Below, piece by piece: positions 24,913 through 35,232 of a stretch of 64,000 nucleotides of DNA. The notes under the pieces are model-generated. The model did no database searches. It worked only from the letters and a program-made list of their open reading frames with translations, and was not told the DNA's origin. Made by a program: the position numbers and the translations under genes. Every line of letters begins with the position of its first letter. The first letter of the stretch is position 1. The DNA comes from Kiritimatiellia bacterium (GTDB lineage: Bacteria; Verrucomicrobiota; Kiritimatiellia; RFP12; UBA1067). The stretch spans positions 11,475-75,474 of the forward strand of contig JAGCAM010000079.1 of NCBI GenBank assembly GCA_017652705.1, written 5' to 3'.

Positions 24913-27669
24913 TCATTGCTCGACGAATTTCAGTACGCCGAAGGCGTTGAGATCGCTGTTGAAATTGCCGAACCTGTTGTAAAGCCGCGAAAGTTCCCAC
25001 ACCGAACCGGGGGTGCGCTTCGACTTGTCTTTGAGCCAGGCGTCGGCGATTCTCAGCCGCGCGATGTTGCCGTTCCAGTGGATGCCGCCCTGCGTGGTCG
25101 GTATTTTCGCGTCGGCGAAGAAACCGAGGTCGCTGTACGGTATGTAGATTTCGACCGACCAGGAGTCTTTGTTGATTTTCGCCCCGCTCTTCAGCCCCTT
25201 CGGTTCCCACTTCTTGGTCTGAACCCGCAACTGGTTGACGGCGTCGATCCAGAGTTTGAAATAGACGCCTTCAAGCTCGCCGGTGGGGTCGACGAAAATT
25301 TCAAGACAGTCGTTGCCCCACCAGTCGCCGGCCGGGTGCGAAGTCTGCAGGCGGTCGGGGGTCTTCTCCATGCAGGTGATGCCGAACACCACGCCTTGCG
25401 AAGTCCATACCGCCTGCACGTAAGTCGGATATTTCGCCACGGTGTTGGTGCGGCTGCCGCTGCCGTCGATACCCGCGAGCGCGCAGGAGAGCGGCTCGGC
25501 GAGCTTCCAGCACGGGTCGGAGAGGTCGCCGTCGATTTTCGGAAGTTCGGCGGCCTTGCGCATGTGCAGGTCGGGGAAGGCCTTGTTGTTGGCGTACTCC
25601 CAGCTTTCCCTGAAAAACCGCTCGAAGGGTTTGGCGTAGTAGGCGAGACGGTTCGAGGCGGCCGCATCGTCGGCGAGAGCCCTGAACGACTCTTTGATTA
25701 TGCGTTCCATCTCCTCCACCTCGGCGCGCGGGTAGCTGATGCCGAAAACGTTTTTGCTGGTGACGCTCGGCCGCTTCCACTGCCGTGCCCACCCTTTCTC
25801 CTGCATGTCGATAAGTTTGCGCATCGGCGCGGCGGCCTTGCCGAACATCCGACTGGCGAATTCGTCGTAGACGTCTTTCGCCTCGAAGCCGGGGTTCCAC
25901 ATCGCCCGCACCCAGACGTAGGCGGAGAGCCCGAGCCGGTCGACCGGATACCCCCCGTTCAGGAAAGATCCGCAGATCACGCCCTTCATCCTGCGGTAGA
26001 ATTCAACAGCGGTGCCGCCGAAAACGTAAGGGGCGCAAGTCCGGTCGGCCGGCCAGCAGATGTAGTGCCAGTTCTGCACGGGGTTGCCGGTCGCCTTCGC
26101 CCATTGGCGCATGAGCTCCTCCTCGTGTCTGCGGGCTGATTCCTGGGCGAGCAGCGCGAGGCCCGGCATGGTGCACAGAAACGCGTCCACGTTGCCTTCG
26201 GCCGTGAGATCGAGACCTTTGGGCACGTCGCAGGTGTTGATGTAGGGAAGTATGGAAATGCGCCAGTCGGGATATTTCCGCTTCATCCATTTGGCGAGTT
26301 CCTTGGTGAAATACCCCCAGATTATCGGCGAAGCGTCGCCCGTGGGCGCGGCTGACTTGTCCACGAGTTTTTTGCAGAAATCGCAGTGGCAGACGACGGC
26401 GGCGTCGTACTGCGAAACGGTTACGGTTTTGCGCTGCACGTCGACGGGGTCGCCCATAAAGCCGCGGCGTTTGCCCTCGACCGTCAGGTTGATGTGCTCC
26501 TTGTAGGTCTGCAGCGTGCGGGGGTTGCCGTAACAGAGCATGGCGGTGCGGGCGCGTTCGCCGTTTTCGGACAGGGCGAAGATTTCCGGTCGCCCCGTCC
26601 AGCGGCTCGGCTTGTAACCGAGATTGGGGTCGACGTGCCAGTAGCTCGGGGTGTGGACCCGGTGCGATGACTGGTGGGCGTCGCCGAATTTCCAGCCGCG
26701 GTGACCCGCTGCGAATTCGGTGCGGAATTCATAGACCGGTTTGTCCGACCAGTTGAACCGTGGCAGGGCGAGACCTTCCGTTTTGATAACGAGTTCGCCG
26801 ATCTTGCGGTCGGGGTAGTACTGGCGTACGCCGAGTATCCGTTCGGCGAAGTCGTAGACGGCGTAGCCGGAGGCGGTCGCATGCGCGCCGATGAGGAAAA
26901 CGTCCCCTCCTTTGGTGAGACAGCGGAAGGCGTGTGCGCCGACGCCCCACCGGGTGTCGGGGGTGCCGGGGCGGGTGACGCCGGCTTCGCGGGCGGCGAG
27001 GGTGTCGCCGATGTAGATCGCGCCGCCGCCGGTGTAGGCGGTGTTGGTGCCGAGATGGAGAACCGGCGGCTTGGCGCCGGTCATCTTTTCGATTATTTCA
27101 GCGAGCCACACCGCTTCGCCGCGCGCTTCGGCCGCCACGATCGGCATGCGGGCGACGCCGTCGGCGACGACCACGACCGGTTCCCCGCGAGGGGCCGAGA
27201 ACGCGGTGAGCGGGGTCAGGTCTTTGGCGCGCGGATTGCCGGGCGCGAGCTGCGCTCTGGATCCGTCCTCCGCGGTGACGAAACTCCCTTTCCGTTCCGC
27301 GGCGGCGGCCGAAGTCTTGGTGAAGTAGTTGGTGGCGAGCGCGGTACGCGACGTCCGGCGGTACGCCTCGAAGAGAACTGAATACTCACCGGCCGGCAGA
27401 TCTTCGACATGCAGCGAAAGCGCATTGCGCCCGACCCGCAAGGGAACCGACTGCGTGCGGAGCATCCTGCCGGACGCGTCGCGCAGCGTCATTTTCACGC
27501 TGTCGGCGGTGCAGACCGGAACCTTTGCCTCGAAGGCGACGTAGACGTCGTCCTTGCCGAGCGTCTGCCGGTCGCCCGAGGCGCCGGTAAATCCGACGGC
27601 CGGCGCCGCGGCGGCGGCGGCGGAAAGGATTGCCGCGGCGGCGAAAAGAACCTGTGCTGTCTTTGTCAT
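24913..27669 (-). CDS. secreted DUF4838-family protein with a C-terminal CBM9-like domain
   Basis: 918 aa with a signal peptide. It has VCHCDFC, WHYICWP and PKIDGDLSDPCWK. It is a close paralog of the C-terminal 760 aa of the 30401-33721 product. Confidence 0.85.
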   Translation of the reverse strand: MTKTAQVLFAAAAILSAAAAAAPAVGFTGASGDRQTLGKDDVYVAFEAKVPVCTADSVKMTLRDASGRMLRTQSVPLRVGRNALSLHVEDLPAGEYSVLFEAYRRTSRTALATNYFTKTSAAAAERKGSFVTAEDGSRAQLAPGNPRAKDLTPLTAFSAPRGEPVVVVADGVARMPIVAAEARGEAVWLAEIIEKMTGAKPPVLHLGTNTAYTGGGAIYIGDTLAAREAGVTRPGTPDTRWGVGAHAFRCLTKGGDVFLIGAHATASGYAVYDFAERILGVRQYYPDRKIGELVIKTEGLALPRFNWSDKPVYEFRTEFAAGHRGWKFGDAHQSSHRVHTPSYWHVDPNLGYKPSRWTGRPEIFALSENGERARTAMLCYGNPRTLQTYKEHINLTVEGKRRGFMGDPVDVQRKTVTVSQYDAAVVCHCDFCKKLVDKSAAPTGDASPIIWGYFTKELAKWMKRKYPDWRISILPYINTCDVPKGLDLTAEGNVDAFLCTMPGLALLAQESARRHEEELMRQWAKATGNPVQNWHYICWPADRTCAPYVFGGTAVEFYRRMKGVICGSFLNGGYPVDRLGLSAYVWVRAMWNPGFEAKDVYDEFASRMFGKAAAPMRKLIDMQEKGWARQWKRPSVTSKNVFGISYPRAEVEEMERIIKESFRALADDAAASNRLAYYAKPFERFFRESWEYANNKAFPDLHMRKAAELPKIDGDLSDPCWKLAEPLSCALAGIDGSGSRTNTVAKYPTYVQAVWTSQGVVFGITCMEKTPDRLQTSHPAGDWWGNDCLEIFVDPTGELEGVYFKLWIDAVNQLRVQTKKWEPKGLKSGAKINKDSWSVEIYIPYSDLGFFADAKIPTTQGGIHWNGNIARLRIADAWLKDKSKRTPGSVWELSRLYNRFGNFNSDLNAFGVLKFVEQ

Positions 27670-30400: not shown

Positions 30401-33400
30401 TCAGTTCTCGCGGAAGATGAACTTTGAAAAAGCTCCCGGATCGCTGTTGTAGCCGTTGCCGCGCGTATGCAGGCGGGACATCTCGGTGGTGTGCGGGGTT
30501 CGCTTGTTGAGCGGACGGATCGTCTTGTCGCCGCGGCGGAGGCGGATGAAGTTCCCCGTCCAGGACATGCCCCCTGAAGTCGTCGGGTGCACCGCGTCTT
30601 TGTAGAGCGCGATCATCGGCTTGTACGGCACGTAAAGTTCGATGCTCCACGACTTCTCGTTCTTCGCGATCGCGCAGCGGACGCCTTCCGGCCCCTGGGC
30701 CTTCTTGAAGCCGTCGTACCACTCGAACTTGCCGCTCGCGTTGATAATCACGCGGCCGAAAGCGCCGTAGTCGCCGCCGAGGTCGATCAGCGCTTCGACG
30801 CAGTCGTTGACCCAGTAGTTGCCGGTGGGGCCGTCGTTGCAGAGGTTCGCCATGTCGCTTTCGCGGCAGTCCATGCCGAACGTGACTGCGGTCGGCGTCC
30901 ACACCGCGCGTATCGACGTGCCCTCTTTCGGCGTCGTGCCCTCCTTGCGCGCGCCGGTGAACTCCTGCGCTTCGGCCAGCTTCCAGCAAGCGTCGTCGAG
31001 CTTGCCGTCGATCACGGGGTCCTGCGACACTTTCTGCATCATGAGCGGCGCAAAGGCGCTGCCGGCGGCGTATTCGGCCGATTCCTTGAAAAACTGCGTG
31101 AAGCCGCCTTTGTAGTAGGCGATGCGCTTCATGAGCAGCTCGTCGCCGGCGCAGAGCTGCTCTGCCTCGGCGAAGAGCCCCTCCATCCTCAGAACTTCCG
31201 CCCGCGGATAGGAAATCGTGTAGATGTTCCGGTTGTTGACGCGGGAGACCTTCCACTGCCGCTCCCAGCCTGTCTCCTGCAGGCGGACGATCTCGCGCAG
31301 CTGTTTCGCCGCGGGCCCGAACATGCGGTCGGCGAAGGTGTCGTAGACGGAGTCGATGTTCAGCTCGGGGTTCCACAGCAGGCGCATCCAGCAGTAGGCC
31401 GAAAGCACCAGCCGGTCTACCGGGTAACGACCGTTGAGAAAGCTGCCCGCTGTGATTTCGCGCGTGTCGCGGTAGTGGCGCTGGGCCGTCTTGGCGAAGA
31501 TAAACGGCGCCTGGCAGGTCTCCGCCGGCCAGCAGATGTAGTGCCAGTTCTGCACCGGCCGACCCGTCACCCGCGCCCAGTCGCGGATGAGTTGCTCCTG
31601 GAACTCCTTCACCGGCTTCTCCTTCAGCATGGCGAGACCGGGCATCGTGCAGAGAAACGCCTCGACGTTGCCCTCTTCGACGAAGTCCACCCCGTCGGGT
31701 ATGTCGGTCGTGTTGTGGTACGGCAGAATGACTATTTTCCAGCCGGGCAGTTCCTTCTTCGCCCACTTGGCGAGTTCTTTCGTGAAGTAGCCCCAGAGCA
31801 CGTTCGAAAAGCTCACGCGGCTTTCGGCGATGTTCTCCTGCGGGTGTCTGGCGAGTATCGCCTTGCAGTATTTGCAGTTGCAGAAAACGGCGATGTCCCA
31901 CTGCGAAACGGTGATGCACTTCGCCAGCGGTGCGGTGATGTCGCCGCGTGGCGAACCGCTGGCGATTTCGGCGAGGATGCGCTCCTTGTACGTTTCGAGG
32001 GTGCGGGGGTTGCCGTAGCAGAGCAGCGGCATCGTCGCCCGTTTGCCGTCGTCGGTCAGCGCGAAGATTTCCGGCCGCGTGAACATGAAGTTGAGGTTGG
32101 TGTTCCTGTTCCACGCCCCGGGCGCATGCACGTGGTGCTCTCCGCAGTGGCTGTCGCCGTTTTTCCACACCCGGCACCATTCGTTGCCTTCGTACGGCCA
32201 GAGGTCGCGCTTGGCGAAAACCGGCTTGTCGGAGTAACTGAACGCCGGCAGCGAAAGCCCGTATGTTTTCACCACAGTGCGGCCGCCGTTCTTGACGTCC
32301 CAGTATTCGCGCACGGCGAGGGCGCGCTCCGCGAAGTCGGTCGCCGCGTAATCGCACCGCGCGCCGCAAAGGTAGACCGACCCGTCTTTCACGCACACCT
32401 TGAACCCGTGCGCGTCGACGCCCCAGCGCTCGCGCTGGTAGGTGGCGAGCCCCGCGCGGCGCGTCGCCGCTACATCGCCTATGTAGATCGCCGGGGCGTT
32501 GGTGACCGGTCTGCCGCCGCACTCGCGCACGATCCTGAGCCTGGCGCCGGTCATGTCCTCGATCACCGAGGCGATGAACTGCGCGGCGAACTGCCCGTCA
32601 CGCGAATCTTCGCAGACGATGTCCATCGCCGGTATCGAGCCGAGAGCGACGGTCGCGCCGGCGCCGCCCAGCCAGCGGAAATCTTTCACCGGCGTCAGAT
32701 CGCGCGCGTTCACGTTCATCGGGGCGCGCTGCGCATGATAAACCCTGCGGCGGACGTCGTCGACGCGCACCACCGCCCCGCCGCGCTTGCCCGATTCCTC
32801 CGCGGCGGCCATGAGCGCGAAGATCTCGTCGGTTTCCTCGGAAGGGAAAGGCTTCACCCCGGTTTTGAAAAACTTGAGTATCTCCTCGAGCATCGGCGCG
32901 TAACCCTCGTATCCCCCGAGATCGACCACCCCCTTGTCGGCGGTGAACGCCTGGCCGGAGTAATTCCACATCCCGGGCCCGCGCATCATGCGCAGACCGC
33001 CGAATCTGCCGTCGCGCCATCTGACGGCCACGAAATCGTTGCTTTCGTTCGAAAAGCAGCTGACCGATTCGGCACCGACCCCCATCACCGCCACGAGCGG
33101 CTCGAAACCGTGGATGCCGTACCAGGTGAACCGCGAGTGGGTGCGCTCAAGCGGCGAGGGAGCAGCGTAGTTGACGCCGCGCACCACGCCCAGCTCCCCT
33201 TTGCGCGCCGCCTGCACCTTCGAAGTCCACCGCAGCGCGGAACAGCTGAAGAAATTGGCGTTGACCCGGCGCGCCTCGTCGAATATCCGGGTGGCGGACT
33301 GGTAGTCGCTGGCGAGGGGCTTGTCGATGAACACCCGCTTGCCGCTCGCGAAAACCTCCCGCGCCTGGGCCAGATGCTCGCGGCCGTCCTGCGTTTCAAG

Positions 33401-33721
33401 CAGCACCACGTCGCACTTCGCCAGCACGTCTTTGACGCTCGGCTCCATTTCAACGCCCATCTCCTTCATCTGCCCGATGTATTTCGGGTAGTTGTTCGTC
33501 ACCGCGGGTATCGTGCGCGAGCCGTACTTGTACGCGGCCACGACCCGGAAATCTTTGAATATCTCGCGGTCGCGCTTGACGTTGATGTGCCTGGTGAACT
33601 CGGTGGCGTGCGACGTGTCGACGCCGATGACGCCGATCTTGATTTCGCCGGCCGTCGGGGCGGCCGCGGCCGCCGCCGCCGCGAGAAGTGCGATTGAGCG
33701 AAGTGGTCTGTCCATTTTCAT
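30401..33721 (-). CDS. secreted fusion: Gfo/Idh/MocA oxidoreductase domain + DUF4838 + CBM9-like domain
   Basis: The ATG at 33721 (MKMDRPLRSIALLAAAAAAAA) has an SD GGAG; the track ORF starts at a TTG at 33757.
- Oxidoreductase part: IKIGVIGVDTSHATEF, FIDKPLA.
- DUF4838 part: FCNCKYC, WHYICWP.
- CBM9-like part: IDGKLDDACWK. Confidence 0.85.
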   Translation of the reverse strand: MKMDRPLRSIALLAAAAAAAAPTAGEIKIGVIGVDTSHATEFTRHINVKRDREIFKDFRVVAAYKYGSRTIPAVTNNYPKYIGQMKEMGVEMEPSVKDVLAKCDVVLLETQDGREHLAQAREVFASGKRVFIDKPLASDYQSATRIFDEARRVNANFFSCSALRWTSKVQAARKGELGVVRGVNYAAPSPLERTHSRFTWYGIHGFEPLVAVMGVGAESVSCFSNESNDFVAVRWRDGRFGGLRMMRGPGMWNYSGQAFTADKGVVDLGGYEGYAPMLEEILKFFKTGVKPFPSEETDEIFALMAAAEESGKRGGAVVRVDDVRRRVYHAQRAPMNVNARDLTPVKDFRWLGGAGATVALGSIPAMDIVCEDSRDGQFAAQFIASVIEDMTGARLRIVRECGGRPVTNAPAIYIGDVAATRRAGLATYQRERWGVDAHGFKVCVKDGSVYLCGARCDYAATDFAERALAVREYWDVKNGGRTVVKTYGLSLPAFSYSDKPVFAKRDLWPYEGNEWCRVWKNGDSHCGEHHVHAPGAWNRNTNLNFMFTRPEIFALTDDGKRATMPLLCYGNPRTLETYKERILAEIASGSPRGDITAPLAKCITVSQWDIAVFCNCKYCKAILARHPQENIAESRVSFSNVLWGYFTKELAKWAKKELPGWKIVILPYHNTTDIPDGVDFVEEGNVEAFLCTMPGLAMLKEKPVKEFQEQLIRDWARVTGRPVQNWHYICWPAETCQAPFIFAKTAQRHYRDTREITAGSFLNGRYPVDRLVLSAYCWMRLLWNPELNIDSVYDTFADRMFGPAAKQLREIVRLQETGWERQWKVSRVNNRNIYTISYPRAEVLRMEGLFAEAEQLCAGDELLMKRIAYYKGGFTQFFKESAEYAAGSAFAPLMMQKVSQDPVIDGKLDDACWKLAEAQEFTGARKEGTTPKEGTSIRAVWTPTAVTFGMDCRESDMANLCNDGPTGNYWVNDCVEALIDLGGDYGAFGRVIINASGKFEWYDGFKKAQGPEGVRCAIAKNEKSWSIELYVPYKPMIALYKDAVHPTTSGGMSWTGNFIRLRRGDKTIRPLNKRTPHTTEMSRLHTRGNGYNSDPGAFSKFIFREN

Positions 33722-33876
33722 GACTCCGGTTAGTGGTTGTGGCTGTTCGATTCTCAAAGTCCAGAGCTGCAGACTCTGCCGTTCTGAAAGATATTTGTCG
33801 CGGAAACCGCGGGTGTGAAGCCAGCCTTCGGCGATGTTGGGCTTTTCAACATACCGCTCTCATCGCCGCACCGCCG

Positions 33877-35232
33877 TCAGCCGCGGAACCGCACCGGCGG
33901 CTCCCAGCCTTTCGCGTATTCGTCGCGGCACCACAGCTTCGCGGCAGCCCCTTTGTTCTGCAGCGCACCCGTCTTCGCGTCGAGCCGGATGGTTTCGCCG
34001 GTCGACCACGCCAAATTGGCGGTGTGCGCCATCTGCGTCGTCGCGAGCGACTTGTCCGGACCAGCGAAGCATAGTTTCGGATCCTTCGCGCGGATCGCGT
34101 CCACCCAGTTGCTGACGTGGTCGGTGTCCATGTAGCTCGCGCCGGTCGTGGACTGTATCCACTCGAACGCGCTCTGATCAAGCCACTTGCCGACGAGTTT
34201 GCTCTTGTTGTCGTACTGGAAAACCCCGTCCTGCGGGTGGAAAAGCACCGAACCGCCGGGGCCGAAGAACATGCACCCCGTGCCGATGTCGTGCGGCGCC
34301 TTCACGTTCGTCGACGAGAGGCATTCGAAAGTGATGATGCGCCCGTCGGCGAACTGGTAGCTCGCGTGCTGGGTGTCGGGCCATTCCCAGTCGTCGCCGG
34401 AGTGGAAGCACCTCGCGCCGAGCGAAACCGTCTTCACCGGGTAGTCCACGCCCATGCCCCAGCGGGCGATGTCGAGAAAGTGCGGCGAGTTGTTGCCCAT
34501 CTCGCCGGTGCCCCAGCGGCGGAACCAGTGCCAGTTGTAATGCACGTAATTGTCGTGGAAGTCCGTGCGCGGCGCCGGCCCCTGCCACATTTCCCAGTCC
34601 AGCCACTTCGGCGGGGCGACCTTCTTGCCGACGCCGATCGTCCCGCGGCGGGAGGTGTACCAGCAGCGTGCGTACTTTACATCGCCGATGAGCTCCTTGA
34701 GCCGCGGTATCATCTCGCGGTACACGCGCGAAGCGCGGCGCTGGCAGCCGATCTGCAGCACCTGGCCTGTCTTCTTCCACGTGTCGAGCAGAATCTGCCC
34801 CTCCTCGCCGTTGTAGCTGCACGGCTTCTCGACGTACACCGCCTTGCCCGCGAGCATGGCCATCCACGCCAGCGGCGCGTGCCAGTGGTCGGGCGTCTCG
34901 CAGATGATCCCGTCGATGTCTTTCATCTCGAGGATCTTGCGGATGTCCGTCGTCTGATAGGGCTTCTTGCCGGTGCGCTTCTCGACTTCCGCCACCGCCG
35001 CCGGCATCCCCTCCGGCCGCGTGTCGACGTCGCAGATCGCCGCCACTTCGACGCCGGGCGTCACCGACGCCGCGCGCATCACCCAAATGCCGCGGCACGC
35101 GCCGCGGCAGCCCATGACCGCCACCCGGACCCGGTTCGACGGAGCGCCCGCCCCGATGACGTTCTTCGCCGACGCGATGAAAAACGCGCCCGCCCCGCCT
35201 TTGATGAAGTTCCTTCTGTCCGTCTTGCTCAT
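33877..35232 (-). CDS. TAT-exported Gfo/Idh/MocA oxidoreductase (GH109-like architecture)
   Basis: 451 aa with a twin-arginine signal MSKTDRRNFIKGGAGAFF, a Rossmann RVAVMGCRG and EKP (VYVEKPCS). Confidence 0.85.
   Translation of the reverse strand: MSKTDRRNFIKGGAGAFFIASAKNVIGAGAPSNRVRVAVMGCRGACRGIWVMRAASVTPGVEVAAICDVDTRPEGMPAAVAEVEKRTGKKPYQTTDIRKILEMKDIDGIICETPDHWHAPLAWMAMLAGKAVYVEKPCSYNGEEGQILLDTWKKTGQVLQIGCQRRASRVYREMIPRLKELIGDVKYARCWYTSRRGTIGVGKKVAPPKWLDWEMWQGPAPRTDFHDNYVHYNWHWFRRWGTGEMGNNSPHFLDIARWGMGVDYPVKTVSLGARCFHSGDDWEWPDTQHASYQFADGRIITFECLSSTNVKAPHDIGTGCMFFGPGGSVLFHPQDGVFQYDNKSKLVGKWLDQSAFEWIQSTTGASYMDTDHVSNWVDAIRAKDPKLCFAGPDKSLATTQMAHTANLAWSTGETIRLDAKTGALQNKGAAAKLWCRDEYAKGWEPPVRFRG

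Follow-up and report, generated by a model that had tools for sequence, protein, structure and literature searches.

The question raised by this locus is whether a secreted protein that joins a Gfo/Idh/MocA-type domain to a putative glycosidase barrel oxidises and then cleaves its substrate within one polypeptide, as an earlier note on the same DNA had proposed. The gene lies in a window of 64,000 nucleotides (the whole stretch of DNA analysed) from a Kiritimatiellae bacterium, contig JAGCAM010000079.1. The analysis favours another arrangement, with a probability of about one half, in which the NAD chemistry would be performed by a neighbouring oxidoreductase and the fused domain would be an NAD-free partner or ligand-binding domain. 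As read from its sequence, the product is an intact four-part glycan-degrading protein that carries, from N to C terminus, a Sec-type signal peptide, a Gfo-fold module (here called the DTSH module), then a GH163/GH185-like DUF4838 barrel together with the N-domain that precedes it, and at the end a CBM9 fold (Table 1).

Table 1. Features of the fusion gene and of two related genes in the window (residues are those of the fusion protein).
Feature	Positions	Strand	Remarks
DUF4838 + CBM9-like paralog, 918 aa (P0273)	24913..27669	-	Lacks the module; different N-terminal region of ~120 aa
Whole ORF, TTG to stop	30401..33757	-	Fusion protein of 1104-1106 aa, NCBI MBO7721731.1
C-terminal CBM9-fold beta-sandwich, residues 889-1106	30404..31057	-	Assigned by fold
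Helical bundle between barrel and CBM9, residues 791-888	31058..31351	-	DSSP of AF2 model
DUF4838 (PF16126) (beta/alpha)8 barrel, residues 485-790	31352..32269	-	PF16126 match
Ordered connector and alpha/beta N-domain ahead of barrel, residues 331-484	32270..32731	-	AF2; collinearity with paralog starts here
DTSH module, residues 25-330	32732..33649	-	Gfo/Idh/MocA fold: Rossmann-like N-domain and alpha/beta C-domain
W200-Y-G-I-H204-G motif	33107..33124	-	His aligns with catalytic His of canonical Gfo enzymes
D133-K134-P135, EKP variant	33317..33325	-	Catalytic Lys kept; DKP in 206/212 relatives
G33-V-D35-T-S-H38 loop	33608..33625	-	Replaces GxGxxG dinucleotide-binding fingerprint; alignment of relatives
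Predicted Sec-type signal peptide, residues 1-24, MKMDRPLRSIALLAAAAAAAAPTA	33650..33721	-	No RR pair, no lipobox Cys
GGAG Shine-Dalgarno-like motif	33724..33727	-	Read off sequence; 8 nt before ATG 33715, 2 nt before ATG 33721
Tat-signal canonical Gfo/Idh/MocA oxidoreductase, 451 aa	33877..35232	-	Upstream of fusion gene; putative redox partner

The open reading frame at 30401-33757 is intact and continuous. Either the ATG at 33715 or that at 33721 is the most likely translation start, and the choice between these codons, 6 nt apart, is the sole uncertainty about the start site. The in-frame sequence upstream of them contains neither an RR pair nor an earlier start codon, and no start codon can supply the RR of a Tat motif. 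Four collinear orthologs, forming further independent ortholog clusters, have the same architecture. The AF2 model of the protein has a pTM of 0.87 with an ordered connector (pLDDT >90), and this rigid build speaks for a functional unit. The reservations attached to the earlier note, that the fusion could be an artefact of assembly or of a frameshift or that the true start could conceal a Tat motif, and the further one of a gene-calling error, are disposed of by these points; nothing was found in their support, the start being a choice between the two ATGs, and their probability is negligible. The high pTM also shows the module packed on the DUF4838 body, which in the model might cover the usual Gfo dimer face, a point against the reading preferred here.

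From residue 331 on, the protein is collinear with the 918-aa paralog, as had been noticed at first reading. PF16126 matches the fusion protein with 90.1 bits against a cutoff of 26.6 and is also found in 54/54 collinear homologs. The structural neighbours of the barrel are GH115, GH84 and GH20, in keeping with a (beta/alpha)8 fold, and 87 of 89 subfamily-invariant residues are kept. The invariants include H532, D609, Y668, W726-H727-Y728 and four cysteines (C568, C614, C616 and C619). H532, D609 and Y728 have an order and spacing similar to those of the Sp_0475 set Q174, H227, D309 and Y436 and are candidate equivalents of residues in it; a PDB sequence search bearing on membership of GH163 or GH185 found nothing. 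Comparison with GH163 (BT1035) and GH185 (Sp_0475) rests on PF16126 at 90 bits, on the same structural neighbours as reported for Sp_0475 and on similarly spaced invariant His, Asp and Tyr; the fusion belongs to a different subfamily, DUF4838+CBM9. In GH163 and GH185 the DUF4838 domain is the catalytic domain of self-sufficient, redox-independent, substrate-assisted retaining hydrolases (PMC10570127). The connector and N-domain region gave a weak Glyco_hydro_67N match in one homolog. PF06452 (CBM9_1) is not significant in the fusion protein and reaches E 0.009 in the paralog; it is significant in 33/54 homologs (best E 1.8e-8), and identity between the C-terminal domain and the CBM9 of Thermotoga maritima Xyn10A (1i82) is 19%. 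The DUF4838+CBM9 subfamily comprises ~90 clusters, mostly of Kiritimatiellae type, only 5 of which have an N-terminal Gfo-like module.

The assignment of the N-terminal domain to the Gfo/Idh/MocA superfamily holds at the level of fold, by the layout of the N- and C-domains, a match to PF01408 and fold comparison. Identity to canonical members (TM_0414, 3ezy; IolG, 3nt2/4l8v; 1,5-anhydro-D-fructose reductase, 2glx; WlbA, 3q2k) is only 13-18%, and alignments of the module profile with PDB entries start only at beta3. The module differs from these enzymes in having GxDTSH for GxGxxG, no acidic residue at beta2, an invariant E-T-N-D-G-R-x-H loop and a Trp at the position of the catalytic Asp; it is also mostly extracytoplasmic and a promiscuous fusion module. 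DTSH is present in 189/212 relatives and none of the 212 has Gly at the second fingerprint position, which is occupied by Asp, with His at the third Gly position. In hhalign comparisons with 46 Tat-Gfo partners, the Gly-rich loop of the module is shorter by 5 residues, ETNDGRxH lies opposite TPDHWxH and DKP opposite EKP, and the His residues are aligned. The end of beta2 has neither the acidic residue expected for NAD nor the Ser/Arg expected for NADP, VAAY-x-x-G-S standing opposite the CDVD of the partners, and Y64, G67 and S68 are invariant. At the catalytic Asp...His pair, the place of the 3ezy Asp is taken by an invariant Trp, W200, and H204 is kept.

The window copy carries all of the motifs that define the module over ~305 residues (GxDTSH, ETNDGRxH, DKP, SSSxLR, WYGIHGxE and EETxEI), with a single deviation among 39 columns that are >=93% conserved. 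Many of these columns are polar (D35, T36, S37, H38, E109, D112, R114, H116, K134, R164, E192, H195, H204 and E207), and these sit where canonical Gfo enzymes line the cofactor and substrate cleft. Of the features on which the earlier note had staked the domain, the catalytic Lys and His are present and the dinucleotide fingerprint is absent, a loss that fits the non-redox role which the note had offered as an alternative. On these motifs the module would bind no NAD(P), and it is very probably not a canonical NAD enzyme but a member of a separate DTSH family.

The DTSH family, defined here, is large, strongly conserved and uncharacterised, with 882 clusters at E <1e-30 and at least 590 genome loci across the PVC phyla and Bacteroidota. 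The window module has 39-60% identity to 119 relatives, and module proteins are annotated only as 'Gfo/Idh/MocA family protein'. The module occurs alone or fused, at the N-terminus, in the middle or at the C-terminus, to many periplasmic domains. Its dozens of unrelated partners include WD40 propellers, DUF1080, esterases, a transporter, LRR domains and Ser/Thr kinase ectodomains (P0141 and P0190); esterase, ceramidase-like and DUF1080 proteins are among the pathway enzymes to which it is fused or beside which it lies. One protein (P0063) is a natural fusion of a GH109-like Tat-Gfo protein with the module. The link with a DUF4838 glycosidase to which the earlier note drew attention recurs independently, in a DUF4838-module-melibiase protein (P0008) and in a Bacteroidota PUL (L004) where DUF4838 and the module are encoded by neighbouring genes.

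The fusion gene and the Tat-Gfo gene at 33877-35232 lie on the same strand, separated by a gap of 120-155 nt in which no terminator-like site was found. The nearest PDB entries to this Tat-Gfo protein are 8tdf and 8tdh, plus DgpA, all of glycoside 3-dehydrogenase type. In this the neighbours of the module resemble the periplasmic glycoside 3-dehydrogenases BT2158/AL3 (PMC8121099; PDB 8tdf/8tdh/8tdi). A canonical Gfo gene directly adjoins the module gene on the same strand in 29/80 loci, and 28 of these 29 have RRxF signals. Up to 700 nt from the module, canonical Gfo genes reach 0.31 per kb, versus 0.005-0.025 per kb at 2.5-10 kb, a 12-60-fold local enrichment. Orthologs of the window Tat-Gfo protein occur directly upstream of module genes at three other loci: L088 (54% identity), L090 (48%, 2-nt gap) and L014 (E 1e-135). 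At L008-L010 the module is found in operons with Tat-Gfo and xylose-isomerase-like genes; xylose-isomerase-like and DUF1080 genes are present both in module loci and in the window. A functional link of the module with Tat-Gfo is therefore considered probable. On the other side, 51/80 stand-alone module loci, many on short contigs, have no immediately adjacent Gfo, and two of the six module+DUF4838 loci (L087 and L089) lack an upstream Tat-Gfo.

Export of the fusion protein is predicted to be of Sec type. Its leader MKMDRPLRSIALLAAAAAAAAPTA lacks the S/T-R-R-x-F-L-K Tat motif, is modelled with pLDDT <50 and a helix at residues 8-19, and ends 2-3 residues ahead of beta1. Plain Sec leaders are also found in orthologs P0002-P0004, with the ortholog pattern MKK...GLA|GEIK. 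The three stand-alone Gfo proteins of the window follow the Tat-export paradigm, and the contrast between a non-Tat fusion and Tat-exported canonical Gfo proteins, first pointed out in the earlier note, is borne out by the leaders. Across the family the export route of the module follows lineage: Tat signals occur in ~41/53 Bacteroidota stand-alone modules, and Sec-type signals in 19/20 PVC modules and in ~11 Bacteroidota stand-alone modules. Tat-type and Sec-type modules have 93 columns >=85% conserved in common and none that are conserved but different. Since Sec modules are common and the conserved sites are the same in both groups, the module would seem to have no obligate cytoplasmic cofactor. 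The premise that Sec export means no preloaded cofactor is weakened, as the same module is Tat-exported in most Bacteroidota. These textbook Tat signals, which are expected of cytoplasmic folding around a cofactor, make a bound cofactor or metal possible and speak against the reading preferred here.

According to that reading, the DUF4838 barrel would use the usual substrate-assisted mechanism to hydrolyse a linkage of beta-HexNAc type, and the CBM9 domain would hold the glycan. The redox step is placed in the neighbour because the module lacks an NAD signature and its family typically lies beside a Tat-exported, NAD-type Gfo; judging from GFOR and BT2158/AL3, the Tat-Gfo protein at 33877-35232 probably comes loaded with NAD. 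The fused module would carry no NAD(P) loaded in the cytoplasm, which would explain the use of Sec for the large fusion and of Tat for its NAD-carrying partner, and its cleft may have been repurposed for ligand binding or processing. It may couple the glycosidase to the substrate or product stream of the dehydrogenase by docking, or by binding or transforming a sugar or keto-sugar. Docking to the Tat-Gfo protein and catalysis on a sugar intermediate are each tentative, with prospects well short of even. The close grouping of invariant polar residues, together with the kept Lys and His, is more suggestive of an active site than of a surface for docking.

Oxidation and cleavage by one polypeptide have a precedent in GH4 and GH109, in which NAD binding and glycosidase activity both reside in the Rossmann domain, with an oxidise-eliminate-reduce sequence; GH109 has the Gfo fold and a Tat signal. 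The fusion differs from that concept in combining a Gfo-like module without an NAD motif with a separate Koshland-type barrel. As stated, the oxidise-then-cleave proposal lacks support, the module being an atypical oxidoreductase and the NAD-competent Gfo an upstream neighbour. A working NAD(P)-dependent module, with a cofactor gained after Sec export or unusually retained, would agree with the full Gfo fold, with the kept Lys and His, with the repeated DUF4838-module association and with the Tat export of many Bacteroidota relatives, a hint that the family may contain a cofactor loaded in the cytoplasm. To our knowledge no NAD(P) supply exists in the periplasm, as established for GFOR and BT2158. 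This lack of supply (PMC8121099), the absence of GxGxxG in 212/212 relatives with Asp where a pyrophosphate contact is needed, the missing acidic or basic residue at beta2, and the likeness of Sec-type and Tat-type modules at conserved sites make such an enzyme improbable. In addition, DUF4838 hydrolases need no oxidation step, and, with so many unrelated fusion partners of the module, the fusion is no machine dedicated to oxidation followed by cleavage.

Non-NAD chemistry is possible, if on balance unlikely: the module might work, for instance, as an isomerase, lyase or hydratase that depends on a metal and takes the neighbour's keto-sugar as substrate, the fusion then joining two consecutive catalytic steps instead of a catalytic and a docking domain. 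The conserved polar columns at cleft-lining positions, the Lys and His, the operons with Tat-Gfo and xylose-isomerase-like genes, and the fusion or adjacency to esterase, ceramidase-like and DUF1080 proteins are consistent with it. A metal centre could also be compatible with export by either Tat or Sec, for which MncA/CucA are a precedent. However, the module is also carried by non-enzymatic partners (WD40 propellers, LRR domains and Ser/Thr-kinase ectodomains), and no such protein is needed to complete the published 3-keto pathway (bioRxiv 10.1101/2024.03.25.586180). The kinase ectodomains and the WD40 or LRR scaffolds would suit a non-catalytic, lectin-like pseudo-enzyme that binds or senses carbohydrate and targets its partners to a common ligand with no specific relation to Tat-Gfo, as would the variable placement of the module and the invariant W200 at the catalytic Asp position. 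Such a domain has a slim chance only, since it leaves the local enrichment and conserved synteny of Tat-Gfo unexplained, and ~40 near-invariant residues across phyla are unusual for CBM-like modules.

Zymomonas GFOR and the other Gfo enzymes that reach the periplasm by Tat with NAD(P) already bound belong to the superfamily of the module and are likewise extracytoplasmic; unlike them, the module of the fusion follows a Sec leader and lacks the cofactor fingerprint. The PF16490 'Oxidoreduct_C' proteins (PDB 4OO3, a hypothetical protein) are a separate uncharacterised family with an extra C-terminal domain. Gfo-type glycoside 3-dehydrogenases (BT2158/AL3) have been reported to underlie broad-specificity glycan breakdown through a four-enzyme 3-keto-glycoside ('alternative') pathway, for which organisation in vivo and NAD recycling were raised as a question (bioRxiv 10.1101/2024.03.25.586180). 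That pathway includes no module-like protein, and its second Gfo-like protein, AL4/BT2159, has been described as cytosolic and dispensable in vitro (bioRxiv 10.1101/2024.03.25.586180). Hundreds of NAD-motif-less Gfo paralogs beside Tat-Gfo enzymes are a candidate for a missing component in NAD recycling or organisation. A bolder and doubtful extension is that the DTSH module is an unrecognised NAD-free paralogous subunit or partner, complexed with periplasmic NAD-locked glycoside dehydrogenases, that regulates them, channels sugars or aids cofactor recycling and serves as a universal fusion adaptor. If so, it would plug Sec-exported glycosidases, esterases, amidases, transporters, propellers and kinase sensors into Tat-Gfo, and the window protein would supply half of an oxidise/cleave machine made up of two proteins that leave by two export pathways.

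Among the proteins counted as 'secreted oxidoreductases' in genomes of PVC bacteria and Bacteroidota, many are probably not NAD enzymes. With Tat export in Bacteroidota and Sec export in PVC bacteria, the module is a clean natural experiment on export. For work on CAZymes, the DUF4838+CBM9 subfamily is abundant in Kiritimatiellae and repeatedly tied to a Tat-Gfo redox system.

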